A stretch of 64,000 nucleotides of DNA from Escherichia coli (GCF_022846255.1 NZ_AP025682.1); one strand, 5' to 3'. Counted from the stretch's first letter, positions 1,293 to 64,000 are shown. Notes: generated from the letters alone by a model not told the origin. Numbers and translations are program-made.

Positions 1293-1320
1293 ACAACAAG
1301 TGCTGCAATAAACTTGTTGT
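1293..1320 (+). promoter_or_regulatory. Inverted repeat (acaacaag…cttgttgt) in the AT-rich leader upstream of the fimbrial major subunit
   Basis: 8-bp arms with 12-bp spacer read directly in sequence; function unknown. Confidence 0.3.
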
Positions 1321-1499
1321 GATTAGGTGTCCTTGTAATTTAAAGATATTATCGTTCTTCGTGAAATGTAATAACCCTGGAAACTATATTCTCAGGGCAA
1401 CTACCAATTAAGAATGATTCTTGTTTTATAAGCAATAACAGAATGACTTAATTGTTAACTCTCTTTATTCAGCTACTTAAATATAAATTTTGGAGAATT

Positions 1500-2063
1500 A
1501 TGAAACTCAAACATGTCGGTATGATTGTCGTTTCTGTATTGGCGATGTCGTCTGCTGCGGTAAGCGCAGCCGAGGGTGATGAATCAGTAACGACCACTGT
1601 TAATGGCGGTGTTATTCATTTTAAAGGTGAAGTGGTAAATGCCGCTTGTGCGATTGATTCAGAATCAATGAACCAAACGGTTGAGCTGGGTCAGGTCCGT
1701 TCTTCTCGTCTGGCTAAAGCGGGTGACCTCAGCTCCGCCGTTGGCTTCAATATCAAGCTGAATGATTGTGATACCAATGTTTCCAGTAATGCAGCTGTTG
1801 CATTCCTGGGTACTACTGTCACCAGTAATGACGATACATTAGCGCTGCAGAGTTTAGCGGCAGGCTCTGCCCAAAATGTTGGTATTCAAATTTTGGACCG
1901 TACGGGGGAGGTATTAATACTTGATGGTGCCACTTTTAGCGCTAAAACTGACTTGATTGATGGCACGAATATATTGCCGTTCCAGGCTCGATATATTGCT
2001 CTCGGGCAGTCAGTAGCTGGTACTGCAAACGCAGATGCGACCTTCAAAGTTCAATATCTATAA
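1500..2063 (+). CDS. F9/Yde-type fimbrial major subunit (FimA-like pilin)
   Basis: Signal peptide [23 protein letters not shown] followed by pilin-like sequence with conserved Cys pair; GGAG ribosome-binding site before ATG 1500; first gene of chaperone-usher operon. Confidence 0.85.
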
Positions 2064-2104
2064 TTCAATCTTAAGGTGGCTATACGTCATCTGAAATTGA
2101 AACA

Positions 2105-2133
2105 GGGTGTGTGTGGCATGGCTACGCACACCC
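2105..2133 (+). terminator. Intra-operon stem-loop after the major pilin gene (possible attenuator)
   Basis: gggtgtgtgt…acgcacaccc hairpin about 40 bp after the pilin stop; such hairpins after the major subunit gene are typical of chaperone-usher operons. Confidence 0.45.
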
Positions 2134-2415
2134 GAGCAATATACCTATGTTCATCTCATTTTTAATGAGGAATGGTTTTTATTTGGGAGCACTATGAAAA
2201 ATCACATAATATCTAAACGATCAATAAACAACAGTAGTTAAACTTGCTGTTATTTAAAATATTTACTTGGTAGCAAGGTTTTCCTATCAAAAGAGAACCA
2301 ACATTTATTACAAACGCATTAAGTCTGGAAACCCGGCGACTCGCCAATGTATTAGCAATATTTACCGATTGTCTGATGTAACGGTTTCCCCGCTTATCCT
2401 CTTAACACATGGAGA

Positions 2416-3135
2416 ATGCATCAGATGCAAACTACGCGTACCCCCTACTCTGTTTCCTTTATGGCGACAGTGTTACTTTTATTGCTCTTTGCTTGCCATA
2501 GCACCATTGCCAACGCAGCTGTCGCACTTGGTGCGACGCGGGTAATTTATCCGGCAAACCAGAAACAGGTTTTATTGCCTGTCACGAATAATGATCCTGC
2601 CAGTGTCTATCTCATTCAGTCATGGATAGAAAATGCGGGTGACCAGAAAGATACCCAGTTTGTCATTACCCCACCGCTTTTTTCCATGCAAGGTAAAAAA
2701 GAGAATACGCTTCGGATAATCAACGCCACTAATCATCAGTTACCAGGCGACCGTGAAAGCCTGTTCTGGGTTAATGTTAAAGCTATCCCTGCTATGGAAA
2801 AAGACCAGAAGAATGAGAATACATTACAGCTGGCAATTATTAGCCGCATAAAAATGTTTTATCGCCCCACGCATCTGGCAATGGCACCTGAAGAAGCGCC
2901 TGCAATGCTTCGGTTTCGTCGCAGCGGTAGCAAATTCACTCTTATTAATCCAACGCCCTACTTCATTACCGTAACGAATATGAAAGCAGGAAATAGCAAT
3001 CTCCCAAACACCATGGTGCCGCCAAAAGGTGAAGTATCGGTGGATATCCCGCATGCGGCAACCGGGGATATCAGTTTTCAGACAATCAATGATTACGGTG
3101 CATTAACTCCGCGTATTAAGGCAACCATGCAGTAA
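2416..3135 (+). CDS. Periplasmic fimbrial chaperone (PapD/FimC-like)
   Basis: N-terminal signal peptide (…LLLLLFACHSTIANA) and chaperone-like sequence; start codon uncertain (2416 to 2461). Confidence 0.8.
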   Translation: MHQMQTTRTPYSVSFMATVLLLLLFACHSTIANAAVALGATRVIYPANQKQVLLPVTNNDPASVYLIQSWIENAGDQKDTQFVITPPLFSMQGKKENTLRIINATNHQLPGDRESLFWVNVKAIPAMEKDQKNENTLQLAIISRIKMFYRPTHLAMAPEEAPAMLRFRRSGSKFTLINPTPYFITVTNMKAGNSNLPNTMVPPKGEVSVDIPHAATGDISFQTINDYGALTPRIKATMQ

Positions 3136-3176
3136 GCCAGTGACCTAATTAATAATAAACTCAATCGGGATTAAAA

Positions 3177-5828: not shown

Positions 5829-5841
5829 GGAACAATAGATT

Positions 5842-6372
5842 ATGAAATACAATAACATTATTTTCCTCGGTTTATGTCTGGGGTTAACCACCTATTCTGC
5901 TTTATCCGCAGATAGTGTTATTAAAATTAGCGGGCGCGTCCTCGATTATGGCTGCACAGTCTCATCGGATTCGCTTAATTTTACCGTAGATCTCCAAAAA
6001 AACAGTGCCAGACAATTTCCAACGACCGGTAGCACAAGTCCAGTCGTCCCTTTTCAGATTACATTAAGTGAATGCAGCAAAGGGACAACGGGAGTTCGGG
6101 TTGCATTTAACGGTATTGAGGATGCAGAAAATAATACTCTGTTGAAACTAGATGAAGGAAGCAATACGGCCTCCGGTTTGGGTATAGAAATACTGGACGG
6201 AAATATGCGTCCGGTGAAATTGAATGACCTTCATGCTGGGATGCAGTGGATCCCATTGGTACCAGAACAGAACAATATTTTGCCTTACTCCGCTCGTTTG
6301 AAGTCAACTCAGAAGTCCGTCAATCCAGGACTGGTGAGCGCTTCGGCAACCTTTACCCTTGAATTTAAATAA
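5842..6372 (+). CDS. ydeS: Fimbrial minor subunit (FimF-like)
   Basis: 176 aa with signal peptide; length and order match K-12 ydeS. Confidence 0.85.
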   Translation: MKYNNIIFLGLCLGLTTYSALSADSVIKISGRVLDYGCTVSSDSLNFTVDLQKNSARQFPTTGSTSPVVPFQITLSECSKGTTGVRVAFNGIEDAENNTLLKLDEGSNTASGLGIEILDGNMRPVKLNDLHAGMQWIPLVPEQNNILPYSARLKSTQKSVNPGLVSASATFTLEFK

Positions 6373-6384
6373 TCAGAGTCAGAT

Positions 6385-6888
6385 ATGAAAAGACTTCACA
6401 AGAGGTTCCTGTTAGCTACGTTTTGCACATTATTCACAGCAACTCTCCAGGCCGCCGATGTCACTATCACTGTTAATGGTCGGGTAGTCGCTAAACCATG
6501 CACTATTCAAACCAAAGAAGCTAACGTTAATCTCGGGGATCTTTATACACGCAATCTGCAACAACCTGGTTCTGCATCTGGCTGGCACAATATTACTTTG
6601 TCATTAACCGATTGTCCGATTGAAACAAGTGCAGTGACGGCAATCGTGACAGGTTCAACTGACAATACGGGTTATTACAAAAATGAAGGTACTGCCGAAA
6701 ATATTCAGATAGAGCTAAGGGATGACCAGGATGCGACGTTAAAAAATGGCGATAGCAAAACGGTTATTGTTGATGAGATCACTCGTAATGCACAGTTTCC
6801 ACTTAAGGCAAGAGCTATCACGGTGAATGGAAACGCAAGCCAGGGTACGATCGAGGCGCTAATCAATGTGATCTATACCTGGCAATAA
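6385..6888 (+). CDS. ydeR: Fimbrial minor subunit (FimG-like)
   Basis: 167 aa with signal peptide; length and order match K-12 ydeR. Confidence 0.85.
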   Translation: MKRLHKRFLLATFCTLFTATLQAADVTITVNGRVVAKPCTIQTKEANVNLGDLYTRNLQQPGSASGWHNITLSLTDCPIETSAVTAIVTGSTDNTGYYKNEGTAENIQIELRDDQDATLKNGDSKTVIVDEITRNAQFPLKARAITVNGNASQGTIEALINVIYTWQ

Positions 6889-6947
6889 CATCAATTTGAT
6901 TTTATTTTCCTCCTTTTTAAATCAATTTTTTAACCTTAGGATATATC

Positions 6948-7862
6948 ATGGGTAAAACATTCAGTATAAAGGTCCTGTTCGGTATTTATCTTCTATTAAT
7001 TGCAGGCAAAGTTTTTGCCTTCAGTTGTAATGTCGATGGCGGGTCAAGTATTGGAGCAGGTACAACCTCTGTTTATGTTAATCTCGATCCTGTAATACAA
7101 CCGGGCCAGAATCTGGTTGTAGACTTGTCTCAGCATATAAGTTGCTGGAATGATTACGGCGGCTGGTACGACACTGATCATATAAACCTGGTACAAGGAT
7201 CAGCTTTCGCAGGCTCCCTACAGTCATATAAAGGATCACTGTACTGGAATAATGTGACCTACCCTTTCCCGTTGACGACAAATACCAACGTATTGGATAT
7301 TGGTGATAAGACACCGATGCCATTACCGTTAAAACTCTATATTACCCCAGTCGGAGCGGCTGGTGGAGTTGTCATAAAAGCAGGGGAAGTTATTGCCCGT
7401 ATTCATATGTATAAAATTGCCACGTTAGGAAGCGGAAATCCGCGTAATTTTACGTGGAATATTATTTCAAATAACAGTGTTGTTATGCCAACAGGCGGTT
7501 GCACCGTTGATAGTCGTAATGTCACCGTGAATCTCCCGGACTTTCCTGGAAGCGCAGAAATACCCCTTGGTGTATATTGCTCTAGCGAACAAAAGCTCTC
7601 ATTTTATCTTTCGGGTGCCACCACTGACAGTGCCCGACAAGTGTTTGCTAACACAGCACCAGATGCAACAAAAGCATCGGGCGTGGGTGTCTCTCTGATG
7701 CGTAATGGAAAAACACTGGCAACAGGAGAAAATGTCTCCCTGGGGACAGTAAATAAAAGCAAAGTACCTCTGGGTTTAAGCGCAACCTATGGACAAACAG
7801 GAAACAAGGTTGCAGCCGGAGCCGTCCAGTCAGTCATTGGTGTCACTTTTATCTATGAATAA
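6948..7862 (+). CDS. ydeQ: Fimbrial tip adhesin (FimH-like two-domain adhesin)
   Basis: 304 aa with signal peptide; last gene of operon; length matches K-12 ydeQ. Confidence 0.85.
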
Positions 7863-7934
7863 TTGTGATTTTGACATTAGTCTATGCGCTCCATTCACGA
7901 AAATTGCGCGGATAATTATTTTGTGAAGGCTATT

Positions 7935-7952
7935 ATCCTACACTTGTAAGAA
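7935..7952 (+). promoter_or_regulatory. EvgA box upstream of ydeP
   Basis: aTCCTACA-CT-TGTAAGAA matches the EvgA inverted-repeat consensus TTCYTACA-N2-TGTRGAA. Confidence 0.6.
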
Positions 7953-8051
7953 AATCCGCGCACAATTGAAGCCAGAGTCTTATTTTTTATATTGAGAATT
8001 ATGTTAATTTAAACCCTATGAGAGATGATGCTTAACTTATCGTATTTATAC

Positions 8052-8110
8052 TACTCTATTATTTAACGATAATAGAGTAAAAATAGTAAGAGAGTAGTCC
8101 CCTACTCTTA
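8052..8110 (+). repeat. Perfect 11-bp inverted repeat (tactctattat-ttaacg-ataatagagta) plus further TACTCT/AGAGTA copies
   Basis: Read directly in the ydeQ-ydeP intergenic region; four copies of the hexamer in alternating orientation. Confidence 0.5.
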
Positions 8111-8200
8111 TATATCCATGTTGACGATAAACCCTATGTATATACTGTGCATCATCGCTATTACAAATCCTAATAATTCATTTCCACACAGGATAAGCAG

Positions 8201-10480
8201 ATGAAGAAAAAAATTGAATCCTACCAGGGAGCTGCCGGTGGTTGGGGTGCTGTTAAATCCGTAGCGAATGCAGTACGTAAGCAGATGGATATACGCCAGG
8301 ATGTTATTGCCATGTTTGACATGAATAAGCCAGAGGGCTTTGACTGTCCGGGATGTGCATGGCCAGATCCTAAGCACAGTGCGTCATTCGACATTTGTGA
8401 AAACGGCGCAAAAGCAATCGCCTGGGAAGCCACGGATAAGCAGGTAAATGCCTCTTTCTTTGCTGAGAATACGGTTCAATCATTACTTACCTGGGGAGAT
8501 CACGAGCTTGAGGCTGCGGGACGTCTCACTCAGCCTTTGAAATATGATGACGTCAGCGACTGTTACAAGCTATTAAGCTGGCAACAAGCTTTCGACGAAA
8601 TTGGCGAACGCCTTCAAAGCTATAGTGATCCCAATCAGGTTGAATTCTATACTTCGGGCCGCACTTCCAATGAAGCTGCCTTTCTTTATCAGCTTTTTGC
8701 CCGTGAATACGGGAGCAATAACTTCCCCGACTGCTCCAACATGTGCCATGAACCGACCAGTGTGGGTTTGGCAGCGAGTATCGGTGTAGGTAAAGGGACC
8801 GTGTTGCTGGAAGACTTTGAGAAATGCGATTTAGTCATTTGCATTGGGCATAACCCTGGTACAAACCACCCTCGCATGTTGACTTCGTTGCGCGCTTTAG
8901 TGAAACGGGGAGCGAAAATGATCGCCATCAATCCTCTACAGGAACGTGGCCTGGAGCGATTTACCGCACCGCAAAACCCGTTTGAAATGCTGACGAACTC
9001 TGAGACTCAGTTGGCCAGTGCCTACTACAACGTGCGCATTGGTGGTGATATGGCGTTGCTCAAGGGGATGATGCGCCTGTTAATTGAGCGCGATGATGCT
9101 GCAAGCGCCGCAGGTCGGCCCTCATTGCTGGATGACGAATTTATTCAAACGCATACCGTCGGCTTTGACGAGCTACGCCGTGACGTGCTCAATTCCGAGT
9201 GGAAAGATATCGAACGTATTTCTGGATTAAGTCAGACTCAAATCGCCGAACTGGCTGATGCATATGCCGCTGCCGAACGCACCATTATCTGTTACGGAAT
9301 GGGGATCACTCAGCACGAACATGGTACCCAGAATGTACAGCAACTGGTCAATCTGCTGTTGATGAAAGGTAACATTGGCAAGCCTGGTGCGGGTATCTGC
9401 CCACTACGAGGTCACTCTAATGTACAGGGCGACCGAACCGTCGGTATCACCGAGAAACCGTCTGCAGAGTTTCTGGCTCGCCTGGGTGAGCGCTATGGTT
9501 TCACCCCACCTCATGCACCTGGACATGCTGCAATTGCCAGCATGCAAGCAATATGTACGGGGCAGGCTCGCGCATTGATCTGCATGGGGGGCAACTTTGC
9601 ACTGGCAATGCCAGATCGGGAAGCGAGCGCTGTACCGTTAACGCAATTAGATCTGGCGGTACACGTTGCCACTAAGCTTAACCGCTCTCATCTGCTGACC
9701 GCACGGCATAGCTATATTCTGCCGGTTCTGGGACGTAGCGAGATTGACATGCAAAAAAGCGGTGCGCAGGCGGTAACCGTTGAAGATTCAATGTCGATGA
9801 TTCATGCCTCGCGTGGTGTGTTAAAACCCGCCGGTGTAATGCTGAAATCAGAGTGTGCAGTGGTCGCGGGAATCGCGCAAGCAGCACTACCCCAGAGCGT
9901 GGTAGCCTGGGAGTATCTGGTGGAAGATTATGATCGCATTCGCAATGACATTGAAGCTGTGCTGCCAGAGTTTGCCGACTATAACCAGCGCATCCGTCAT
10001 CCTGGTGGTTTTCACCTGATAAACGCAGCAGCTGAAAGGCGCTGGATGACGTCGTCAGGTAAGGCTAATTTCATTACCAGTAAAGGGCTGTTAGAAGATC
10101 CCTCTTCAGCGTTTAACAGTAAGCTGGTCATGGCGACAGTACGCAGTCACGATCAGTACAACACGACGATTTATGGTATGGATGATCGCTATCGAGGGGT
10201 ATTCGGTCAACGAGATGTGGTCTTTATGAGTGCTAAACAAGCTAAAATTTGCCGTGTAAAAAACGGCGAAAGAGTTAATCTTATTGCACTCACGCCAGAC
10301 GGTAAACGTAGCTCACGCCGCATGGATAGATTAAAAGTGGTCATTTACCCTATGGCTGACCGCTCACTGGTGACCTATTTTCCAGAATCGAATCACATGC
10401 TAACACTTGATAACCACGATCCATTAAGTGGCATTCCTGGCTATAAAAGTATTCCGGTTGAATTAGAACCATCAAATTAA
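8201..10480 (+). CDS. ydeP: Acid-resistance molybdopterin oxidoreductase (formate dehydrogenase-like, FdhF family)
   Basis: 759-aa ORF matching YdeP length and sequence; no in-frame TGA. Confidence 0.92.
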
Positions 10481-11000: not shown

Positions 11001-11762
11001 ATGTCGCTCGTTTGTTCTGTTATATTTATTCATCATGCCTTCAACGCTAACATTTTAGATAAAGATTACGCCTTCTCTGACGGCGAGATCCTGATGGTAG
11101 ATAACGCTGTTCGTACGCATTTTGAACCTTATGAGCGGCATTTTAAAGAAATCGGATTTAATGAAAATACCATTAAAAAATATCTACAATGCACTAACAT
11201 CCAGACAGTGACGGTGCCTGTTCCTGCGAAGTTTTTACGTGCTTCAAATGTACCGACTGGATTGCTTAATGAAATGATTGCTTATCTCAACTCGGAAGAA
11301 CGCAATCATCATAATTTTTCAGAACTTTTGCTTTTTTCTTGCCTGTCTATTTTTGCCGCATGCAAAGGTTTCATTACACTATTAACTAACGGTGTGCTAT
11401 CCGTTTCCGGGAAAGTGAGAAATATTGTCAACATGAAGCTGGCGCACCCATGGAAGCTGAAAGATATTTGTGACTGCCTGTACATCAGTGAAAGCCTGTT
11501 GAAGAAAAAACTAAAGCAAGAGCAAACGACATTCTCACAGATTCTTTTAGATGCCAGAATGCAGCACGCAAAAAATTTGATACGCGTAGAAGGTTCAGTC
11601 AATAAAATTGCCGAACAATGTGGTTATGCGAGTACATCTTATTTTATTTATGCGTTCCGCAAACATTTCGGCAACAGTCCAAAGAGAGTTTCTAAGGAGT
11701 ACCGTTGTCAAAGGCACACGGGTATGAACACGGATAACAAGATGAGTGCTTTAGCTATTTGA
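11001..11762 (+). CDS. ydeO: AraC-family acid-resistance regulator
   Basis: 253 aa with C-terminal AraC HTH; position after safA. Confidence 0.9.
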   Translation: MSLVCSVIFIHHAFNANILDKDYAFSDGEILMVDNAVRTHFEPYERHFKEIGFNENTIKKYLQCTNIQTVTVPVPAKFLRASNVPTGLLNEMIAYLNSEERNHHNFSELLLFSCLSIFAACKGFITLLTNGVLSVSGKVRNIVNMKLAHPWKLKDICDCLYISESLLKKKLKQEQTTFSQILLDARMQHAKNLIRVEGSVNKIAEQCGYASTSYFIYAFRKHFGNSPKRVSKEYRCQRHTGMNTDNKMSALAI

Positions 11763-11810
11763 TTATTTGCTAACGAGTAGTCAACCACACACGCTGCGTA
11801 AGAATTAAAT

Positions 11811-11842
11811 GGGGCAGCCATTCCCTGCCCCGCGTTGTTTTT
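11811..11842 (+). terminator. Rho-independent terminator after ydeO
   Basis: ggggcag-ccattc-cctgcccc hairpin followed by gcgttgttttt. Confidence 0.7.
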
Positions 11843-12163
11843 AGGTGATATATTTCTTGAAATAAATAAGTGACAGCCATCACATATTTATGCATTTGCA
11901 TAACCCGTTGCATGATTATTTATGATCTCAATTCGGTATTTTGTCGGTAAAATTCAATAATTTGTTAAATATCAATAGATTAGTTGTTTATCAACGAGAA
12001 TTTACTTAGTAGAACAGAAAGTAATGTCAACAGTTTATGGACTGTTATTTCTCTTTTTTTAGCTAAATCTGCTATCTATTTATGTGACTAACTTCACTTA
12101 CATTAACTTATTTCTCTTCGTAAAATTACTTTGGAATTAAGTACAATAAGAAGAGGAACATTT

Positions 12164-13846
12164 ATGAAGTCTGCATTAAAGAAAAGTGTCGTAAGTACCT
12201 CGATATCTTTGATACTGGCATCTGGTATGGCTGCATTTGCTGCTCATGCGGCAGATGATGTAAAGCTGAAAGCAACCAAAACAAACGTTGCTTTCTCAGA
12301 CTTTACGCCGACTGAATACAGTACCAAAGGAAAGCCAAATATTATCGTACTGACCATGGATGATCTTGGTTATGGACAACTTCCTTTTGATAAGGGATCT
12401 TTTGACCCAAAAACAATGGAAAATCGTGAAGTTGTCGATACCTACAAAATAGGGATAGATAAAGCCATTGAAGCTGCGCAAAAATCAACGCCGACGCTCC
12501 TTTCATTAATGGATGAAGGCGTACGTTTTACTAACGGCTATGTGGCGCACGGTGTTTCCGGCCCCTCCCGCGCCGCAATAATGACCGGTCGAGCGCCCGC
12601 CCGCTTTGGTGTCTATTCCAATACCGATGCTCAGGATGGTATTCCGCTAACAGAAACTTTCTTGCCTGAATTATTCCAGAATCATGGTTATTACACTGCA
12701 GCAGTAGGTAAATGGCACTTGTCAAAAATCAGTAATGTGCCGGTACCGGAAGATAAACAAACGCGTGACTATCATGACAACTTCACCACATTTTCTGCGG
12801 AAGAATGGCAACCTCAAAACCGTGGCTTTGATTACTTTATGGGATTCCACGCTGCAGGAACGGCATATTACAACTCCCCTTCACTGTTCAAAAACCGTGA
12901 ACGCGTCCCCGCAAAAGGTTATATCAGCGATCAGTTAACCGATGAGGCAATTGGCGTTGTTGATCGTGCCAAAACACTTGACCAGCCTTTTATGCTTTAC
13001 CTGGCTTATAATGCTCCGCACCTGCCAAATGATAATCCTGCACCGGAGCAATATCAGAAGCAATTTAATACCGGTAGTCAAACAGCAGATAACTACTACG
13101 CTTCCGTTTATTCTGTTGATCAGGGTGTAAAACGCATTCTCGAACAACTGAAGAAAAACGGACAGTATGACAATACTATTATTCTCTTTACCTCCGATAA
13201 TGGTGCGGTTATCGATGGTCCTCTGCCGCTGAACGGGGCGCAAAAAGGCTATAAGAGTCAGACCTATCCTGGCGGTACTCACACCCCAATGTTTATATGG
13301 TGGAAAGGAAAACTTCAACCCGGTAATTATGACAAGCTGATTTCCGCAATGGATTTCTACCCGACAGCTCTTGATGCAGCCGATATCAGCATTCCAAAAG
13401 ACCTTAAGCTGGATGGCGTATCCTTGCTGCCGTGGTTGCAAGATAAGAAACAAGGCGAGCCACATAAAAATCTGACCTGGATAACCTCTTATTCTCACTG
13501 GTTTGATGAAGAGAATATTCCCTTCTGGGATAATTACCACAAATTTGTCCGCCATCAGTCAGACGATTACCCGCATAACCCCAACACCGAGGACTTAAGC
13601 CAATTCTCTTATACGGTGAGAAATAACGATTATTCGCTTGTCTATACAGTAGAAAACAATCAGTTAGGTCTATACAAACTGACGGATCTACAGCAAAAAG
13701 ATAACATTGCCGCCGCCAATCCGCAGGTCGTTAAAGAGATGCAAGGCGTGGTAAGAGAGTTTATCGACAGCAGCCAACCACCACTTAGCGAGGTAAATCA
13801 GGAGAAGTTTAACAATATCAAGAAAGCACTAAGCGAAGCGAAATAA
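12164..13846 (+). CDS. ydeN: Ser-type sulfatase (periplasmic)
   Basis: 560 aa with signal peptide; sulfatase signature S-x-P-x-R seen as VSGPSRAAIMTGR. Confidence 0.9.
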   Translation: MKSALKKSVVSTSISLILASGMAAFAAHAADDVKLKATKTNVAFSDFTPTEYSTKGKPNIIVLTMDDLGYGQLPFDKGSFDPKTMENREVVDTYKIGIDKAIEAAQKSTPTLLSLMDEGVRFTNGYVAHGVSGPSRAAIMTGRAPARFGVYSNTDAQDGIPLTETFLPELFQNHGYYTAAVGKWHLSKISNVPVPEDKQTRDYHDNFTTFSAEEWQPQNRGFDYFMGFHAAGTAYYNSPSLFKNRERVPAKGYISDQLTDEAIGVVDRAKTLDQPFMLYLAYNAPHLPNDNPAPEQYQKQFNTGSQTADNYYASVYSVDQGVKRILEQLKKNGQYDNTIILFTSDNGAVIDGPLPLNGAQKGYKSQTYPGGTHTPMFIWWKGKLQPGNYDKLISAMDFYPTALDAADISIPKDLKLDGVSLLPWLQDKKQGEPHKNLTWITSYSHWFDEENIPFWDNYHKFVRHQSDDYPHNPNTEDLSQFSYTVRNNDYSLVYTVENNQLGLYKLTDLQQKDNIAAANPQVVKEMQGVVREFIDSSQPPLSEVNQEKFNNIKKALSEAK

Positions 13847-19485: not shown

Positions 19486-22281
19486 ATGGAGATAATTATG
19501 AGAAACCTCTGTTTCTTACTGACGTTAGTGGCAACTCTGTTGCTCCCCGGGCGACTGATTGCCGCCGCCTTACCGCAGGATGAAAAGTTAATTACCGGGC
19601 AACTGGACAATGGCTTGCGATATATGATTTATCCGCATGCTCAACCAAAGGATCAGGTAAATTTATGGCTGCAAATTCATACCGGTTCATTGCAGGAAGA
19701 AGACAATGAGCGCGGCGTGGCTCATTTTGTAGAACATATGATGTTTAACGGCACAAAAACATGGCCGGGTAATAAAGTCATCGAAACATTTGAGTCAATG
19801 GGCCTGCGTTTTGGTCGCGATGTTAATGCCTATACCAGCTATGACGAAACAGTGTATCAGGTGAGTTTGCCGACTACGCAGAAACAAAATCTGCAACAAG
19901 TGATGGCAATCTTCAGTGAATGGAGTAATGCCGCAACCTTTGAAAAACTCGAAGTAGACGCTGAACGCGGCGTAATTACTGAGGAATGGCGTGCCCATCA
20001 GGATGCGAAATGGCGCACCTCTCAGGCGCGCCGCCCTTTCCTGCTGGCAAATACCCGTAATTTAGACCGTGAACCTATCGGCCTGATGGATACCGTCGCC
20101 ACGGTCACACCGGCACAATTGCGCCAATTTTATCAACGCTGGTATCAACCAAATAATATGACCTTTATTGTGGTCGGCGATATCGACAGTAAAGAAGCGC
20201 TGGCGCTGATAAAGGATAATTTAAGTAAGCTTCCGGCTAACAAAGCAGCTGAAAATCGCGTCTGGCCGACAAAAGCCGAAAACCACCTGCGCTTTAATAT
20301 CATCAATGATAAAGAAAACCGGGTGAACGGCATCGCACTCTATTATCGCCTGCCAATGGTACAAGTGAACGATGAGCAAAGCTTTATCGAACAAGCTGAA
20401 TGGAGCATGTTGGTTCAGCTGTTCAACCAACGTCTGCAGGAACGCATACAGTCGGGCGAGTTGAAGACTATTTCTGGCGGCACTGCGCGCAGCGTCAAAA
20501 TTGCACCCGATTATCAGTCGCTATTTTTCCGTGTAAATGCACGAGACGATAATATGCAGGATGCTGCGAATGCATTAATGGCAGAGTTGGCAACCATTGA
20601 TCAGCATGGTTTTTCTGCTGAAGAACTCGATGATGTTAAATCTACCCGCCTTACCTGGCTGAAAAATGCGGTTGATCAGCAAGCTGAGCGTGATTTACGT
20701 ATGCTGACCAGTCGCCTGGCATCCAGCTCATTAAATAATACGCCGTTCTTGTCGCCGGAAGAGACATATCAACTTTCGAAACGTCTGTGGCAGCAAATTA
20801 CCGTGCAAAGTCTGGCGGAAAAATGGCAGCAGTTAAGAAAGAACCAGGACGCATTTTGGGAGCAAATGGTAAACAATGAAGTTGCCGCCAAAAAAGCATT
20901 GTCTCCTGCGGCTATCCTGGCGCTGGAAAAAGAGTACGCCAACAAAAAGCTGGCGGCTTACATCTTCCCAGGCAGAAATTTATCGTTAACAGTAGACGCT
21001 GACCCACAGGCGGAAATTAGCAGCAAAGAAACGCTGGCTGAGAATCTGACATCATTAACACTTTCCAATGGTGCCAGGGTTATTCTGGCAAAATCCGCGG
21101 GTGAAGAGCAAAAGCTACAAATTATTGCCGTATCTAATAAAGGCGATTTAAGTTTCCCTGCGCAGCAAAAATCACTTATCGCGCTGGCTAATAAAGCAGT
21201 AAGCGGAAGCGGCGTTGGTGAACTCTCCTCTTCCAGCCTGAAACGCTGGAGTGCGGAAAACTCGGTAACCATGAGCAGTAAAGTCAGTGGCATGAATACG
21301 TTGCTCTCCGTTAGCGCGCGGACTAATAACCCTGAACCTGGTTTCCAGTTGATTAACCAGCGAATCACCCACAGCACGATTAACGACAATATTTGGGCAT
21401 CGCTGCAAAATGCTCAAATTCAGGCGTTGAAAACGCTCGACCAGCGTCCAGCGGAGAAATTCGCCCAGCAGATGTATGAGACGCGCTATGCTGATGACCG
21501 CACGAAATTACCGCAAGAAAATCAGATTGCACAGTTTACTGCCGCAGATGCACTGGCTGCCGATCGCCAGTTGTTTTCATCTCCAGCGGATATCACGTTT
21601 GTCATTGTCGGTAATGTCGCAGAAGACAAACTCGTGGCGTTAATTACGCGTTACTTAGGATCTATCAAACACTCTAATTCGCCATTAGCCGCAGGTAAAC
21701 CATTAACTCGCGCGACGGACAACGCATCGGTTACTGTAAAAGAACAAAATGAACCAGTGGCACAGGTTTCACAGTGGAAGCGTTATAATTCCCGGACTCC
21801 TGTTAATCTGGCGACGCGTATGGCGCTCGATGCTTTTAACGTCGCACTGGCAAAAGATCTACGCGTTAATATTCGTGAACAGGCATCTGGAGCATACAGC
21901 GTTTCTTCTCGCCTCTCGGTTGATCCTCAGGCCAAAGATATCAGTCATTTGCTGGCTTTTACTTGTCAACCAGAACGACATGATGAACTGTTAACGTTAG
22001 CGAATGAAGTGATGGTTAAGCGTCTGGCTAAAGGGATCAGTGAGCAAGAACTGAATGAATACCAGCAAAACGTTCAGCGCAGCCTCGATATCCAACAGCG
22101 TAGCGTTCAACAATTAGCGAACACCATTGTAAATAGTCTTATTCAATATGACGATCCTGCAGCATGGACTGAGCAGGAGCAATTATTGAAACAAATGACG
22201 GTAGAGAATGTTAACACTGCCGTTAAACAATATCTTTCTCATCCGGTGAATACCTATACCGGAGTATTATTGCCAAAATAA
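19486..22281 (+). CDS. pqqL: Periplasmic M16-family zinc metallopeptidase
   Basis: 931 aa; inverted zinc-binding motif HFVEH…E. Confidence 0.9.
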   Translation: MEIIMRNLCFLLTLVATLLLPGRLIAAALPQDEKLITGQLDNGLRYMIYPHAQPKDQVNLWLQIHTGSLQEEDNERGVAHFVEHMMFNGTKTWPGNKVIETFESMGLRFGRDVNAYTSYDETVYQVSLPTTQKQNLQQVMAIFSEWSNAATFEKLEVDAERGVITEEWRAHQDAKWRTSQARRPFLLANTRNLDREPIGLMDTVATVTPAQLRQFYQRWYQPNNMTFIVVGDIDSKEALALIKDNLSKLPANKAAENRVWPTKAENHLRFNIINDKENRVNGIALYYRLPMVQVNDEQSFIEQAEWSMLVQLFNQRLQERIQSGELKTISGGTARSVKIAPDYQSLFFRVNARDDNMQDAANALMAELATIDQHGFSAEELDDVKSTRLTWLKNAVDQQAERDLRMLTSRLASSSLNNTPFLSPEETYQLSKRLWQQITVQSLAEKWQQLRKNQDAFWEQMVNNEVAAKKALSPAAILALEKEYANKKLAAYIFPGRNLSLTVDADPQAEISSKETLAENLTSLTLSNGARVILAKSAGEEQKLQIIAVSNKGDLSFPAQQKSLIALANKAVSGSGVGELSSSSLKRWSAENSVTMSSKVSGMNTLLSVSARTNNPEPGFQLINQRITHSTINDNIWASLQNAQIQALKTLDQRPAEKFAQQMYETRYADDRTKLPQENQIAQFTAADALAADRQLFSSPADITFVIVGNVAEDKLVALITRYLGSIKHSNSPLAAGKPLTRATDNASVTVKEQNEPVAQVSQWKRYNSRTPVNLATRMALDAFNVALAKDLRVNIREQASGAYSVSSRLSVDPQAKDISHLLAFTCQPERHDELLTLANEVMVKRLAKGISEQELNEYQQNVQRSLDIQQRSVQQLANTIVNSLIQYDDPAAWTEQEQLLKQMTVENVNTAVKQYLSHPVNTYTGVLLPK

Positions 22282-22287
22282 TAACAG

Positions 22288-57908: not shown

Positions 57909-58136
57909 TTACATGCTGTAACCGGGTTTCTTTATCAAAGCCTCCATTTGGGGCTCGACTTCGGCATCCCAGATAGCTTGCCAAGATTCTGGTTGAATCT
58001 GCTGTAGAGAAATGCTTATCGAGCTATCTTTACTGTTCAGATGGCGAATAATAACGTCGGTAATATCTGCAGCAAGTGCTGCTTTTTGTTGTTCGTCCAG
58101 TTCACGCGGAAAACATTTAATGTCTATGTGCGGCAT
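57909..58136 (-). CDS. pptA: Tautomerase (4-oxalocrotonate tautomerase family)
   Basis: 75 aa from [18 protein letters not shown]… with N-terminal Pro after Met. Confidence 0.88.
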
Positions 58137-58441
58137 GATTGTGCTCCTTTTGAAAGATGTCAGTAAAATTAACACACGTTGTGAATGTCGTGTGTCCGGT
58201 AATGCGTTTTTACGGCAATAATGCCTACTTGAAATTGTACATATTTGTACTACACACTTTTAAATAAAGCGCCAATGAAAACGTTAACTTGCAGAATATA
58301 TTCTTCGCCAACATGCCATTAAGAAAACATCAAGTTCCCGGCTTGCCAATTTGTTAACGCCCATTATAGTTATTCTTGCCCTCACTAAAAATTTTCATCC
58401 GTAATTACCCCCAATAAAAATCCATTCTGGAGACGCTTAAG

Positions 58442-60418
58442 ATGCAGCTTAATCATATCGTTAAAAGTCTGCTAATAACGGGATTATTCACCACCAGTTC
58501 TTTACCTCTCCTCGCGGCGGAAGCTCCTAAAGACGCCACCGCAGCCACGCAACAAGCAAACAATTTACTCTACAACCAGTTGCCGTTTGCCGATAACACT
58601 GACTTTACTGATGCCCATAAAGGTTTTATTGCCCCTATCCCTCAAGACGTGATTAAGGGCGAACAAGGGAATGTTATCTGGGATCCACAACATTACGCTT
58701 TTATCAAAGAAGGCGATAAAGCCCCTGATACGGTGAATCCGAGTTTATGGCGTCAGGCGCAACTGATAAATATCAGCGGGTTATTCGAAGTAACTGAAGG
58801 TGTCTATCAGATTCGCAATCTCGATCTATCAAATATGACCATCATTGAAGGCAAAGAGGGTATTACCGTCGTTGATCCCCTTGTTTCAGCAGAAACAGCC
58901 AAAGTGGGTATGGATCTCTATTACAAAAATCGCGGCAAAAAACCGGTAGTGGCGGTTATCTATACACACAGTCATGTCGATCACTACGGTGGTGTTCGTG
59001 GCGTAATTGATGAAGCTGACGTTAAATCAGGCAAAGTTAAAATCTATGCGCCAGCCGGATTTTTGGAGGAAGCCGTTTCCGAAAACATCATGGCTGGCAA
59101 TGTTATGAGCCGACGAGCCAGTTATATGTATGGCAACTTATTGAAACCTGATGTTAAAGGCCAGGTGGGGGCTGGACTGGGAACGACTACTTCAGCAGGA
59201 ACAGTCACGTTGATTGCTCCTACTAACTACATCACCAAAACCGGACAAATAGAAACTATTGACGGGTTGACTTATGATTTCCTGATGGCGCCAGGTTCTG
59301 AAGCGCCTTCTGAAATGCTGTGGTTTATTGAAGAAAAGAAACTGATCGAAACCGCTGAAGATGTCACGCACACCCTTCATAACACCTATTCGCTGCGTGG
59401 GGCTAAAATTCGCCAACCGCTGCCGTGGTCAAAATATATTAATGAAGCTCTCAATTTGTGGGGTGATAAAGCCGAGATTATTCTCGCTCAACATCACTGG
59501 CCAACCTGGGGCAACGATAACGTGGTCAAACTGCTTAAAAGCCAGCGTGATTTGTATCGTTACATCAATGATCAAACTCTGCGCATGGCTAATCAAGGGA
59601 TGACCCGTGATGAAATTGCCGCAAACTTTAAACTGCCCTCTTCACTGGCTAACACCTGGGCGAATCGCGGCTATTACGGTTCGGTAAGTCATGACGTGAA
59701 AGCAACTTACGTGCTTTATCTCGGCTGGTTTGATGGTAACCCCGCGACGCTTGATGAACTGCCGCCAGAAGAAGGCGCAAAAAAATTCGTCGAGTATATG
59801 GGCGGTGCTGATGCCATTTTACAGAAAGCCAAACAGGATTATGACCAGGGTAATTTCCGCTGGGTTGCCCAAGTTGTTAGTAAGGTGGTGTTTGCCGATC
59901 CAAACAACCAGGCAGCGAGAGATCTGGAAGCTGATGCGCTTGAGCAGTTAGGCTATCAGGCTGAATCTGGGCCGTGGCGTAATTTCTATCTCACTGGTGC
60001 ACAGGAATTGCGTAATGGCGTACAAAAATTACCAACACCAAATACTGCCAGCCCAGACACCGTGCGTGCGATGACGCCGGAGATGTTCTTTGATTATCTT
60101 GCCGTCCATATTAATGGTGAGAAAGCGGCAGATGCCAAAACCGTGTTGAATTTCGATTTTGGTGAAGATGGCGGCACCTATAAAGTGGAGCTTGAAAATG
60201 GTGTTCTCAATCATACCGCTGGTGTAGAGGCTTCGGATGCTGATGCCACTATCACTCTGTCTCGTGATGTATTGAACAAAATTGTACTGAAAGAAGAGAC
60301 GCTGAAAGAAGCCACGGCCAAAGGAGATGTCAAAATTACTGGCAATGCGGAAAAACTCAACGAGCTGTTAGGTTATATGGATAATTTTGAATTTTGGTTC
60401 AATATAGTGACACCATAA
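58442..60418 (+). CDS. Secreted alkyl/aryl-sulfatase of the metallo-beta-lactamase fold (SdsA1/YjcS-like)
   Basis: 658 aa; signal peptide (…TTSSLPLLAAEAP); MBL zinc motif THSHVDHYGG; not at this position in K-12 as far as I recall. Confidence 0.8.
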   Translation: MQLNHIVKSLLITGLFTTSSLPLLAAEAPKDATAATQQANNLLYNQLPFADNTDFTDAHKGFIAPIPQDVIKGEQGNVIWDPQHYAFIKEGDKAPDTVNPSLWRQAQLINISGLFEVTEGVYQIRNLDLSNMTIIEGKEGITVVDPLVSAETAKVGMDLYYKNRGKKPVVAVIYTHSHVDHYGGVRGVIDEADVKSGKVKIYAPAGFLEEAVSENIMAGNVMSRRASYMYGNLLKPDVKGQVGAGLGTTTSAGTVTLIAPTNYITKTGQIETIDGLTYDFLMAPGSEAPSEMLWFIEEKKLIETAEDVTHTLHNTYSLRGAKIRQPLPWSKYINEALNLWGDKAEIILAQHHWPTWGNDNVVKLLKSQRDLYRYINDQTLRMANQGMTRDEIAANFKLPSSLANTWANRGYYGSVSHDVKATYVLYLGWFDGNPATLDELPPEEGAKKFVEYMGGADAILQKAKQDYDQGNFRWVAQVVSKVVFADPNNQAARDLEADALEQLGYQAESGPWRNFYLTGAQELRNGVQKLPTPNTASPDTVRAMTPEMFFDYLAVHINGEKAADAKTVLNFDFGEDGGTYKVELENGVLNHTAGVEASDADATITLSRDVLNKIVLKEETLKEATAKGDVKITGNAEKLNELLGYMDNFEFWFNIVTP

Positions 60419-60432
60419 ATTTACTGCATACC

Positions 60433-60456
60433 GGGCAGGTATCCTGCCCTTTTTTG
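60433..60456 (+). terminator. Rho-independent terminator after the alkylsulfatase gene
   Basis: gggcagg-tat-cctgccc followed by tttttt. Confidence 0.75.
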
Positions 60457-60464
60457 GTTAAAAA

Positions 60465-61562
60465 ATGGCTGAACGAAGAAAAACGCATCACTCATGGAAA
60501 ACCCGCCGCGATATGGTTATTCGCGGCATGACGATTAGTTTGCCATGGTTTGCTTTTATCAATGTCAGTTTTGCATTGATAATTTTGCTGCGCCGTGTTC
60601 TGTTTAATGACCTTACTCCACCCTGGTTAAATGAAAAAAGCCTTATACATTCTATTGATATATCTGCAACGGGTATTCTGCTGATTTGCAGTGGTTTACT
60701 ACTCATCCCTCGGCAAAAAACATTACCTATCCAGGTGCTATTAGTTGCCCTGAGCCTGCTATGGTCATGGTGTAGTTATCACTTTATTGCGTACTGGACG
60801 CTGCAGTTTGCTTATCCACTATGTGTATTATTAATGCTTAGTGGCGTTGTCGCACTTTATTTCCATACCCCATCATTGCTCGCATTTGTCATTCCCTTAT
60901 GGTTCACCACTCCAATAGCGAGTCTTATGCTTAATCAACAGATCAATATTCATTTTGCTGTTGTATGGTGTATTTTTTCACTGGCGCTATATGGTGGGCG
61001 ACTCATTTTGTTACGTTGGTTTGAAGAAGCATGGGTACAAAACAGTTATAACAACCAGTTAATTAATCGCCTTGATGCATTAGCACATCGCGATCCTTTA
61101 ACTGGGATAGCAAACCGACGTGCAATGAACAGTATCTTACACGACGCGATGGATAACGGCGGGTCATTTGCTCTTATTATGCTGGATGTCGATTTTTTTA
61201 AACGTTACAACGACACTTACGGGCATCCTGCTGGGGATCGTTGTCTAATACAAGTTGCCGACGCTCTACAGCGTTCAACTCGCCAGTCGGAGGATGTTGT
61301 TGTCCGTTATGGTGGCGAAGAGTTTGCCATCATACTTTTTAATGCAACATTGCCGGAAGCAGAGACGGTAGCAGCCAGAGTGAAGCAAGAACTTAAACTG
61401 GCAGCTATCCCACATCAGGCATCTGCTGTTAATGCATTCGTTACGGTTAGTCAGGGGATTACCTGTTCTGCTCCCGCAAAAACGGCTGAACAAATTATTT
61501 CAGATGCCGACGCTGCGTTATACCGGGCGAAAGAAAGTGGGCGAAATCGATGGGCTTTATAA
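60465..61562 (+). CDS. Membrane-anchored diguanylate cyclase (multi-TM N-terminal domain + GGDEF domain)
   Basis: ~200 aa hydrophobic N-terminus with 5-6 TM segments, then GGDEF hallmarks: DPLTGIANRR, RYGGEEF, ADAALYRAKESGRNR; AT-rich; start codon uncertain. Confidence 0.8.
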   Translation: MAERRKTHHSWKTRRDMVIRGMTISLPWFAFINVSFALIILLRRVLFNDLTPPWLNEKSLIHSIDISATGILLICSGLLLIPRQKTLPIQVLLVALSLLWSWCSYHFIAYWTLQFAYPLCVLLMLSGVVALYFHTPSLLAFVIPLWFTTPIASLMLNQQINIHFAVVWCIFSLALYGGRLILLRWFEEAWVQNSYNNQLINRLDALAHRDPLTGIANRRAMNSILHDAMDNGGSFALIMLDVDFFKRYNDTYGHPAGDRCLIQVADALQRSTRQSEDVVVRYGGEEFAIILFNATLPEAETVAARVKQELKLAAIPHQASAVNAFVTVSQGITCSAPAKTAEQIISDADAALYRAKESGRNRWAL

Positions 61563-61635
61563 GCATTAGGGGACTGGACAGATTACGTCTCTCCTCGCTT
61601 AACAAGGGCTGACGGAGGGTAATAATTGTCTATAG

Positions 61636-62187
61636 CTATCTTCTTAGCGATGTCTTTCTGGTATCACATTGGATCGGTGCAATTATTTTTCCTTTAATAC
61701 CCATTATGTTAAGAAATTCAGAACCAGCTGTAATCTCATTGTTTTTTTCATTCGTCTTGATCTTCCAAGGAATCTGACTGTGCATTATTGAGAACACACT
61801 AATAACGTGAATCGCTCCCTTGCGACGACTCTTGTCATAAGAGTACCGGAGCGTTTTTCCATCAATTGCAATGACGTCTTTATCATCTGAAGAATGGCAG
61901 TCAAGCATCCAGTTAATAAAGCACTCATGAAATTTTTCAGGACTGATACAGGATACAACTCTGGCAATGGTATCGTGAACAGGAATACCATTATCAAAAT
62001 CACCATATTGCTTCAAAAAATCGAGATGTGTTTCCCCAAAATCCTCTATATCTTCCCAGCCTTCTGCACCCGAAATAACGACACAAATAGTCAACAGTAG
62101 AATATCCGATAATTTATGCTCCACTTTCCAGGCTTGTCTGTAATCGGGGATAATAGAAATATGTTCCATCAATTTTTTAAGTTCCAT
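61636..62187 (-). mobile_element. ISAs1-family (H-repeat, YdcC/YhhI-like) transposase, 5' fragment only (about codons 1-190, frameshifted near its end)
   Basis: [63 protein letters not shown]… is the H-repeat protein N-terminus as I recall it; frame breaks after …IKGKII and similarity ends about 75 bp before the DGC stop. Confidence 0.8.
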
Positions 62188-62360
62188 TTTGTTCTCCTTA
62201 ATTATGTAAAGAGTATTTGATCATGTATAAGCAATAAAAAACAGCTTTAGGTAATGAGGAATATCTCAATTTTTAAACATAAAATGCGAATTATTTAGTA
62301 CAAAAAAGCAGCGTTACGTGATCTTTCCATGGAAAAGAGAGTAATACACTGATTTTTAAC

Positions 62361-62395
62361 GCAGATTGCCAGTGCTACCAACACTGACAATCTGC
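62361..62395 (+). promoter_or_regulatory. 14-bp imperfect inverted repeat upstream of the symE-like gene (candidate operator)
   Basis: gcagattgccagtg-N7-cactgacaatctgc, one mismatch, about 35 bp upstream of ATG 62428. Confidence 0.35.
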
Positions 62396-62427
62396 TCACC
62401 ACAAGCAACTAACAGAGGTAGTTAATC

Positions 62428-62747
62428 ATGGCTGAACACGATATTACGCCAGAAGTCGCCATTTCCAAAACACAGCGCCGCTATAAAGTCGGCTATGTCA
62501 GAGCCCGCCACATAAACAGCAAACCACGTACTACTCACGACACCCCAGCCTGAACCTTAAGGGCGACTGGCTGAAAGAGGCCGGATTTGATACCGGACGG
62601 GGTGTCACGGTGAAGATTTCGGAGGGGTGCCTGACCATCATCGCTGACAGTGACGAGGTGCAGGAACTGCGGGAGGAACTTTATCAGGTTAAACAGGTGG
62701 TTAAGGGGATGCGGAACGGGATGTTTAGTGTGCTGAACGAGAATTAA
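62428..62747 (+). pseudogene. SymE-family (type I toxin-like, AbrB-fold) gene with an apparent -1 frameshift
   Basis: Frame A gives MAEHDITPEVAISKTQRRYKVGYVRARHINSKPRTTHDTPA then TGA at 62551; frame -1 continues LNLKGDWLKEAGFDTGRGVTVKISEGCLTII…, resembling the SymE core (ITLKGQWLEAAGF…EGC) as I recall it. Confidence 0.6.
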
Positions 62748-62797
62748 ATAATAAAAAAGCCGGGGAGATTTAAAATCTTCCCGGCTTTCTTTATCAT

Positions 62798-63100
62798 CTA
62801 AAAAGGTAATAATCCTCTAATAGGAGAAAATTTTGTAATATCAATACCTTGTAATTTAAAGTAATTAAAAGCATCTTCTATATTGGAAAACGCACTAATT
62901 TCTTCAGTTGCATAATCTTCGAACACTTCCATTTTATTTTCTGGTATTTTGAAAAAATAGGTATTGTATTTTTCATCCTGTTTTTTAATGGCATATTGGA
63001 AAAAATAACTTTCACCATTTATTTCCTTTATCTCATCAAAACCTCTAACCTTACCATTCTCTATAGCAACAATTAATTTTTCAATAGACAAATCAACCAT
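62798..63100 (-). CDS. Small acidic protein, candidate immunity protein
   Basis: 100 aa, D/E-rich; start overlaps the stop of the upstream basic ORF by 8 bp; AT-rich codon usage. Confidence 0.5.
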   Translation of the reverse strand: MVDLSIEKLIVAIENGKVRGFDEIKEINGESYFFQYAIKKQDEKYNTYFFKIPENKMEVFEDYATEEISAFSNIEDAFNYFKLQGIDITKFSPIRGLLPF

Positions 63101-63440
63101 CTATATCTATCCTCACCATTGTCCCATCAGAACGTTTAATATTTATATGAGGCAAAGAACCATGCCCTGTGCCTTTATGGTCATCATGACCATATACACG
63201 ACCAGTATTAGAATCAATAGGGTAATCTTTCCTATAACGGACAGTACCATCTCTTTTCTTAAATTGTTCCATCTTATGTTTTTTTCTAATACCGGCGGCA
63301 TCCTGCGAACTGATCCCTCTTACTTTTTGAGCATCAGGAAAGGCCTCCATCAATAAATCATGGGCTTCCTGTTTTGATTTAACTGTGACAACGGTTCCTT
63401 GAGGCCCCAGGGCAAGATTACGAAAGCCCGCTCCCCGCAA
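63093..63440 (-). CDS. Small basic His-rich protein, candidate orphan toxin domain (possibly HNH/EndoVII-type nuclease tip)
   Basis: 115 aa, K/R-rich with [21 protein letters not shown]; no Rhs DPxGL or CdiA VENN junction visible; its start overlaps the ISAs1 transposase stop, so the N-terminal part may not be genuine. Confidence 0.45.
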
Positions 63441-64000
63441 GGACTGACGCCAGATAGTTTCTGTCCATGGCTGCTTTTCGCATCTTACGTCTTAACCCTG
63501 CCTTGAATACCTTATCATTCGTCAAAATATTAATAGCGATGTGCCGTATCCCTGAAAATAATTCTGCTGCATTTCCTCTTCTTATTTTGCAGTCGTCTTC
63601 ATTCATTACCACGTCCAGACGCCAGTGCAGCTTATTCTCCACGTGCCAGTGGTTTCGGATTGCTGTGGCGAACTTCTCTGCGGTTAAATCAGCAGAACTG
63701 ATATAATATCTGACCGTCATTTCTGGCTATTTCTTTTGTTCTGCTATTATGGACCGAAAGGAGACTGCCACGCATAATTTCTTCAGTCCTTTCCATTCAA
63801 ACGTGAAATCAATAAGTTCATCAGGGACATCGCAAACAATATGAAGACGGATTTCTTCTCTGCCGTGACTTTTTTCACTAATTGCGTAACTGTCATGCTC
63901 TGGATTATTCAATTCTTTCAGCGGAAATTTTTCCTCGAAGGCTTTATTTAGCCGCCCCTGGTTTCCTTTTACAGCGAATAAATAATCACCTCCCTGTTTT
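63418..64000 (-). mobile_element. ISAs1-family (H-repeat) transposase, 3' portion, interrupted by an in-frame TAG; continues beyond the window
   Basis: Reverse-strand translation from the window edge reads [43 protein letters not shown]…AEQKK-(TAG at 63727..63729)[45 protein letters not shown]…. Confidence 0.8.

Follow-up and report, generated by a model that had tools for sequence, protein, structure and literature searches.

A probable Rhs effector toxin domain truncated by ISEc1 and its intact immunity gene at an rhsE-type locus of Escherichia coli

Two small overlapping open reading frames (ORFs) lie on the minus strand close to the end of a 64,000-nt stretch of Escherichia coli DNA (GCF_022846255.1, NZ_AP025682.1; the whole stretch is referred to as the window henceforth). 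What did this pair originally belong to, and what is it now? An initial annotation, made from the sequence alone, had proposed a displaced polymorphic-toxin tip with its immunity gene, associated with H-repeat (ISAs1) elements, or else an unclassified toxin–antitoxin (TA) pair. Our analysis indicates that the ORFs very likely represent the C-terminal toxin domain (CT) and the cognate immunity gene of an Rhs effector of a type VI secretion system (T6SS) at an rhsE-type locus between pptA and ansP, and that the CT has been cut by an insertion sequence (IS). We also consider it likely that this identity, the IS truncation, and a present role in orphan immunity all hold together.

The two ORFs, of 115 and 100 codons, share 8 nt (ATGGTTGA), such that the start of the immunity gene overlaps the stop of the toxin ORF, and a GAGGA sequence is located ~9 nt 5' of the ATG of the 100-aa ORF. 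The product of the 115-aa ORF is basic (isoelectric point [pI] 9.87; 21 Lys plus Arg and 6 His) and contains the His-rich 21-letter peptide that the initial annotation had quoted, whereas the 100-aa product is acidic (pI 4.64; 18 Asp plus Glu and no His) and showed no signal peptide when its sequence was read. The guanine–cytosine (GC) fraction is 0.264 for the immunity gene and 0.331 over 62798–63404, compared with 0.479 for the whole window; an equally low GC is found in just 0.16% of 607-bp windows, and the ORF pair is the lowest-GC patch of the window. Thus, the overlap, the AT-rich setting, and the contrast between a basic, His-rich first product and an acidic second one had all been read correctly. 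Two further low-GC patches, at approximately 11600–12450 and 22100–22700 (GC 0.33–0.35 in 607-bp windows), are comparable to this one. Homologues of both ORFs, down to 23–45% identity, occur in other genera with the same order and spacing, and the pair is therefore more than a chance arrangement.

To place the pair, the window was compared with 5,426 complete E. coli genomes using megablast. The segment 62700–63408 was found at 99.7–99.9% identity in 74 of the 5,426 genomes, and the alignment always ended at 63408. In these 74 genomes, the order of genes is pptA, sulfatase, GGDEF, ISAs1 remnant, SymE, immunity gene, and CT, after which come Rhs, a DcrB-related/Eag protein, and VgrG. Strain 104 and APEC O2-211 have the same gene order as the window up to the junction (narW, narI, yddE, nhoA, yddH, pptA, alkyl/aryl-sulfatase, GGDEF, ISAs1 remnant, SymE-like gene, 100-aa gene, and toxin tip), and the DNA upstream of their tip encodes an Rhs protein of 1,458 aa, a DcrB-related protein of the Eag type, and VgrG, with ansP beyond. 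The Rhs protein of loci L001 and L002 starts with AARQGDALLH, which in L001 we take to be a prePAAR-type motif, and is encoded together with a Vgr family and a DcrB-related protein.

The reading frame of these relatives reveals how the toxin domain was once attached. In L001 and L003, the CT sequence runs upstream as ...APNPLSWIDPLGL/TACSKNAKSLRE-GPQG, and in related genomes the Rhs core adjoining this DNA ends in PLSWIDPLGL. Read from the DNA, the Rhs frame enters the tip as ...DPIGLAGG(I)NLYQYAPNPLSWIDPLGL, followed by TACSKNAKSLRE and GPQGTVV..., that is, the PxxxxDPxGL autocleavage motif and then the toxin domain. The toxin domain directly follows the Rhs core and PxxxxDPxGL in both loci (...APNPLSWIDPLGL-TACSKNAKSLREGPQG...), and the CT frame continues from ...YAPNPLSWIDPLGL in relatives. 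As the CT continues the Rhs frame, the 115-aa ORF is an Rhs C-terminal toxin domain without its core. The same DNA being contiguous with an Rhs core in relatives, the idea of a displaced, H-repeat-associated polymorphic-toxin tip with an immunity gene stands; that of an unclassified TA pair does not, as the toxin ORF is there the tail of an Rhs ORF. The earlier remark that no Rhs junction motif is visible is true within the window, but only because the IS, cutting in at 63405–63408, has removed the motif. The main-position copy is represented by L001. In MEI003 (L003), the CT/immunity module occupies an orphan position behind two other Rhs modules and has kept only ~100 nt of core.

The boundary of the truncation is sharply defined. 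Toxin homology ends at 63408 and homology to ISEc1 starts at 63405/63406, with 95–99% identity to copies in 5,017 E. coli genomes; the junction therefore lies at 63405–63408. ISEc1 points the same way as the toxin and immunity genes. Its end supplies the first 11 codons of the 115-aa ORF (63408–63440), including the TTG start, and native residues begin at Gly12 (63407). Hence, the 5' boundary given to this ORF in the initial annotation belongs to the IS and not to the toxin. The ISEc1 transposase frame contains a premature stop at 63727–63729, at the position of a Glu in the intact 378-aa transposase of a metagenome contig (L008; ERZ929318 k127_11549, 1–8745).

The IS/CT junction was found in none of the complete E. 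coli genomes of the collection, and an exact-match scan of one-genome-per-species contigs gave no match. An identical hybrid 115-aa ORF is present on the independent contig L008, which is identical to the window over 62192–63728 and differs from it at 11 sites in 63729–63949, within the IS. The other IS flank on this contig is the 5' end of the vgrG of the main T6SS cluster (tssM, tai4/rap1a, tae4, tagF, and an ORF with HExxH). L008 may represent either a large IS-mediated rearrangement in the lineage or a chimeric assembly across IS copies. Because its IS diverges from that of the window from 63729 on, the contig may be chimeric and was not relied on.

The state of the module elsewhere in E. 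coli was also informative. All eight examined genomes in which the CT lies behind a full Rhs core (L001, L002, and L010–L015) carry, together, a run of seven G residues, not six, just after GLAGG and the substitution D73G. The 7-G run shifts the frame; annotations therefore list an 85-aa ORF of its own for the CT and a frameshifted Rhs gene. These two changes may represent fixed pseudogenisation or, less likely, a slippery homopolymer switch. Asp73 is kept in the MEI003 orphan copy and in the window, whose CT carries an additional G45S substitution at a Gly conserved at 86%. The immunity protein is identical in MEI003, in the window, and in the eight 7-G/D73G genomes. A possible reading is that E. 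coli lineages are losing the weapon by different routes (7-G frameshift with D73G, orphaning, and IS truncation), with the immunity gene kept unchanged.

In an intact system of this kind, a prePAAR-Rhs protein sits on VgrG with the help of an Eag chaperone and is fired by the T6SS. Autocleavage after PxxxxDPLGL frees the CT to poison the cytoplasm of the recipient, and sister cells are protected by the immunity protein, which binds the CT. In the window, ISEc1 appears to have inserted 12 codons into the CT, leaving a toxin stump and an intact immunity gene that, overlapping the toxin ORF, would be translationally coupled to it. With no core, no PAAR, and no native start, the CT of the window cannot be delivered. 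The immunity gene has kept its Shine–Dalgarno sequence, is oriented like the IS transposase gene upstream of it, and has a strong hairpin with a T-run at its 3' end. It would probably be transcribed by read-through from the IS, with transcription ending at the hairpin at 62756–62788. A promoter scan of the immunity gene identified no convincing promoter, a point against this account. The present-day function of the locus, if any, is most likely orphan immunity against an incoming toxin of this family.

Does this toxin belong to a wider family? A word-indexed search recovered 20 close relatives, including Rhs fragments from Pseudomonas and metagenomes, and an exhaustive hidden Markov model (HMM) search of 1.84 billion representatives yielded 101 clusters (50% identity), 44 of them at E≤1e-10, spread over Proteobacteria, Firmicutes, and Spirochaetes. 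The domain ends 0–11 aa from the C-terminus in all 72 full-length matches, and Rhs_assc_core (TIGR03696) lies upstream in 8 of 10 long members. One member (P0067) combines an Rhs core with intein/Hint-like matches, and its contig record lists PT-HINT; another (P0142, 897 aa) combines an S8/mycosin-like peptidase domain, an Rhs-associated core, and the toxin domain. In its architecture, P0142 brings to mind the 'S8-PTS' systems that served to define S8-VOC1. All Foldseek matches in AFDB50 were tails of uncharacterised Rhs, Hint, or PT-TG toxins, spread over many phyla. The most conserved columns of a 66-sequence alignment are His99 (100%), Asp73 (98%), Lys40 (98%), Asn101 (97%), His94 (92%), Glu26 (91%), His86 (88%), and His71 (70%).

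For the 100-aa immunity protein, whose sequence equals those of MEI003 and WP_000228044, 36 homologues were found, in Escherichia, Citrobacter, Enterobacter/Kosakonia, Salmonella, Pluralibacter, and Pseudomonas. Four loci with divergent members of the toxin family all have an ORF of 95–109 aa directly 3' of the toxin. At three of them, this ORF is homologous to the immunity protein of the window (L004, 45% identity, E 5e-30; L005 and L007, HMM E-values of 2e-6 and 6e-6 at a nominal database size of 1e6), whereas that of L006 has no detectable relation to it. Judged from these sequences, homologous ORFs downstream of divergent toxins indicate that the two families travel together, like effector–immunity pairs.

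Neither protein belongs to a named family in the databases searched. The initial annotation had expected Tox-HNH/GHH and Imm matches in Pfam; both query proteins matched no family at E≤10, and nothing significant was obtained with the alignments A1, A2, and A3 or with 66 toxin and 9 immunity family members. NCBIfam and PADLOC gave no match for either protein, and no TA families. PDB sequence searches with single sequences and with the A2 profile gave chance matches only (TnsE, RAF-RBD, and DisA; E 0.3–0.5), and the A2 profile matched no chain at E≤10, 5T86 included, besides the chance match to DisA. A DNA-binding helix-hairpin-helix (HhH) suggested by that match ('KVxGxGxxxAxxI') was rejected, given its E of 0.48, the lack of a Pfam HhH match among the 66 members, and a model strand at 39–40 where the first HhH helix would be. 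A literature search with the RefSeq protein accessions returned no paper. 'Undescribed system', for which the pair had been named the strongest candidate, goes too far, since the type of system is classical Rhs/T6SS and what lacks characterisation is just the two domain families, toxin and immunity.

The fold of the CT was modelled with AlphaFold2 (AF2) using the 66-sequence alignment, which gave a model with a pLDDT of 94.5 and a pTM of 0.87. The model comprises helix 5–12, strand 18–21, helix 24–34, helix 51–61, and strands 69–73, 99–103, and 109–114, along with short bridges. The CT is a small basic alpha/beta domain from a family absent in Pfam and PDB. Nearly all of its top structural matches are glyoxalase/bleomycin-resistance (vicinal-oxygen-chelate, VOC) modules, including 3e5d and 4qb5. 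The N-terminal helix 5–12 precedes the first strand, and the His columns are 71, 86, 94, and 99. We therefore tentatively favour, at somewhat below even chances, a single-module VOC-like (beta-alpha-beta-beta-beta) enzyme with a metal-chelating cluster. The putative metal site would occupy one face of the sheet and involve His71 (Arg in this subfamily), Asp73, His86, His94, His99, and Asn101, and the target would be an anionic cytoplasmic substrate, probably a nucleic acid or nucleotide; the cytoplasmic location is suggested by the lack of a signal peptide in the immunity protein. The conserved four His and Asp match the computationally described S8-VOC1/CdiA-VOC class. A bolder proposal is that the CT is a single-module VOC-like metalloenzyme whose His/Asp cluster confers an activity new to interbacterial toxins, unlike a conventional nuclease, NADase, or ADP-ribosyltransferase, and that it is neutralised by an equally undescribed 100-aa immunity fold; this is conceivable, though we regard it as unlikely.

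Several points weigh against the explanation given here. The spatial clustering of the His residues is deduced solely from strand periodicity in the model; position 71 is Arg, not His, in the E. coli subfamily to which the window belongs; no experimental report of toxicity or neutralisation for any family member was found in the literature; and a preprint on the 5T86-like Salmonella Rhs2 toxin classes it as a BECR RNase that binds EF-Tu (bioRxiv 10.64898/2026.05.10.723254), which makes the VOC/metal assignment contested. The main rival to the favoured His/Asp metal site is thus a metal-independent BECR-type RNase at the same locus, cleaving tRNA or rRNA, possibly with the assistance of EF-Tu, like the 5T86-type CdiA-CT and Salmonella Rhs2, with Asp73, His86, His94, and His99 as acid–base residues. 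This is doubtful in our view, yet a serious contender: the preprint places the 5T86 fold in BECR and found Asp192 and His204 of Rhs2 essential for toxicity, the basic toxin and acidic immunity protein would suit an RNase, and the C-terminal half of the AF2 model consists of a helix followed by a beta-meander. However, the Zhang laboratory classes 5T86_A as VOC, not BECR (PMC9424270), none of the 66 members has a Pfam BECR/Ntox match, and no match was obtained to BECR structures or profiles (barnase, RelE, colicin D/E5, and EndoU; a helix plus a four-stranded antiparallel sheet). A DNase tip of the HNH/GHH type (beta-beta-alpha-Me), suggested by the GH...H...H...N string, is far less probable. 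The motif is indeed rich in His and Asn, and one of the 66 members has a non-significant Tox-HNH-EHHH match (E 1.6e-2), but the query has no Pfam HNH, GHH, AHH, or SHH match at E≤10, the conserved His and Asn are on strands 99–103 and loops, and no helix follows the His-bearing hairpin in the model, which closes with two beta-strands.

Two other explanations concern the role of the pair as a whole. A free-standing type II TA (addiction) pair near IS elements, unrelated to secretion, would account for an AT-rich island in which a small gene for a basic product overlaps one for an acidic product, and orphan Rhs modules have been reported to act like TA modules in Salmonella (PMC7043789). We nevertheless consider it extremely improbable, given that the toxin adjoins Rhs cores both in E. 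coli and in 8 of 10 long members and is always C-terminal in larger proteins, that the toxin precedes a downstream immunity gene, as in polymorphic toxin systems, and that the native start codon is absent from the window, the present one being derived from the IS. Alternatively, the truncated toxin might still be made, from the IS-derived TTG or an internal ATG, and form an intracellular growth-control or addiction module with the immunity protein. The ORF is open over 115 codons and keeps all conserved candidate catalytic residues, including Asp73, which is replaced in eight other E. coli genomes; the IS transposase gene reads towards it; and the identical hybrid ORF occurs in a second sample (L008). 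Against this, a reading of the sequence revealed no Shine–Dalgarno-like sequence 5' of the TTG and no ribosome-binding site before Met31, the 12 lost N-terminal residues include most of helix 1, G45S alters a conserved Gly, and the IS copy itself is degenerate, which makes continued toxin production improbable.

Compared with known systems, the pair is closest to the Rhs-CT/RhsI modules of T6SS prePAAR-Rhs effectors, including orphan cassettes, as at the E. coli rhsE-type locus and in the Salmonella SPI-6 Rhs-main/Rhs-orphan arrangement. Shared features are a CT placed behind PxxxxDPLGL of an Rhs core in related genomes, where VgrG and an Eag/DcrB-like chaperone lie upstream; an immunity gene that overlaps the stop of the toxin; a module richer in AT than the core; the occurrence of both main (L001) and orphan (L003) positions; and an adjoining ISAs1/H-repeat element. 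The window differs in that a short core stub and 12 CT codons have been lost to ISEc1, and in that its CT and immunity domains fall in no named family. ISAs1 elements have long been associated with rhs loci, and the IS-eroded cassette of the window fits this association. By description, S8-VOC1, S8-VOC2, and CdiA-VOC (5T86_A; PMC9424270) also resemble the CT: they consist of one beta-alpha-beta-beta-beta unit, as is proposed for the CT, with an N-terminal extension, have four conserved His on the sheet and loops, and form the C-termini of polymorphic toxins, and P0142 also has an S8 peptidase. S8-VOC1 toxins are Gram-positive BetaH toxins with ferredoxin-like immunity proteins (PMC9424270), whereas this family is mostly borne by Rhs or Hint proteins and has its own 100-aa immunity family, and at the first His column the E. 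coli subfamily carries Arg. Salmonella Typhimurium Rhs2–SciX (bioRxiv 10.64898/2026.05.10.723254) is likewise a small orphan-type Rhs toxin with 5T86 as the nearest solved structure, an essential Asp and His, and a dedicated small immunity protein. SciX, which has a six-stranded sheet, four helices, and residues numbered up to H138, is apparently larger than the 100-aa protein, Rhs2 is reported to bind EF-Tu, and no sequence similarity has been established between Rhs2 and the toxin of the window.

The features of the locus and its surroundings are listed in Table 1. The older ISAs1 remnant is annotated in relatives as 'ISAs1 family transposase, frameshifted, incomplete'. Within the hairpin region between the convergent immunity and SymE-like genes, a terminator-like site at 62756–62788 has 15 pairs and reads on the minus strand as a hairpin followed by TTTTTTATTA; from this sequence, the region is likely a bidirectional terminator. 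The SymE-like gene, which is intact (330 nt) in L001 and L003, is a neighbour and not part of the toxin–immunity pair. Antisense to it, Rfam identified isrA at 62499–62617 (96 bits, above the gathering score), along with a sub-threshold SymR match at 62358–62433 (48 bits), giving an antisense region at 62358–62617 on the minus strand. In MEI003, a SymE-like gene follows each Rhs-CT/immunity module, a pattern suggesting that SymE cassettes move together with rhs tips. The interval from pptA to the ISAs1 remnant holds alkyl/aryl-sulfatase and GGDEF diguanylate-cyclase genes (58442–61562, plus strand). At least 80% of 58000–64000, including these two genes, is matched in 79 genomes, a distribution that makes the whole block look like a strain-variable island with IS remnants at its ends. 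On L008, positions 7204–8312 (7211–8313 in L009, E. coli AR_0077), between tagF and vgrG, hold a 246-aa ORF with HExxH (LSHELGHIIG) and, after it, a 123-aa ORF that has a hydrophobic segment at its N-terminus. By their sequences, these two ORFs may be a putative unannotated metallopeptidase effector/immunity pair; PADLOC gave no match for them.

Table 1. Coordinates of the toxin–immunity pair, the IS junction, and neighbouring features in the window
Feature	Position	Strand	Description
Toxin-remnant ORF	63093–63440	minus	115 aa, TTG start
CT remnant, native part	63093–63408	minus	Residues 13–116 of the 116-aa CT (GPQGTVV...RIDIDG); Rhs core, DPLGL motif, and first 12 CT residues missing
IS-derived 5' extension of the 115-aa ORF	63409–63440	minus	TTG start plus ~10 codons; fusion artefact
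Immunity gene, intact	62798–63100	minus	100 aa, ATG start, acidic
ISEc1 (ISAs1 family, H-repeat), 3' part	63405–64000	minus	95–99% identity to ISEc1 copies; runs off the window
GC-rich hairpin with T-runs on both sides	62750–62797		Between the convergent immunity and SymE-like genes
SymE-like type I toxin gene	62428–62747	plus	10 bp deleted after 62522 (alignment), which inactivates the copy of the window
ISAs1 transposase remnant, older	61636–62187	minus	N-terminal 183 aa; bounds the module on the other side; common to related genomes

The locus itself is ordinary, another Rhs toxin/immunity cassette that an H-repeat IS has eroded, and its value lies in the domain family. The toxin family is compact (~116 aa), confidently modelled, and endowed with clear candidate catalytic residues, and it comes with an immunity family; both are without a Pfam, NCBIfam, or PDB entry. 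It falls in a fold class (single-copy VOC/5T86-like) whose activity is disputed between a metal-chelating enzyme and a BECR RNase. In addition, the E. coli population data provide a case of how orphan immunity arises, with an invariant immunity gene set against a toxin that is frameshifted with D73G, orphaned, or cut by an IS. If true, nature would here offer a clean case of selection acting on immunity alone.
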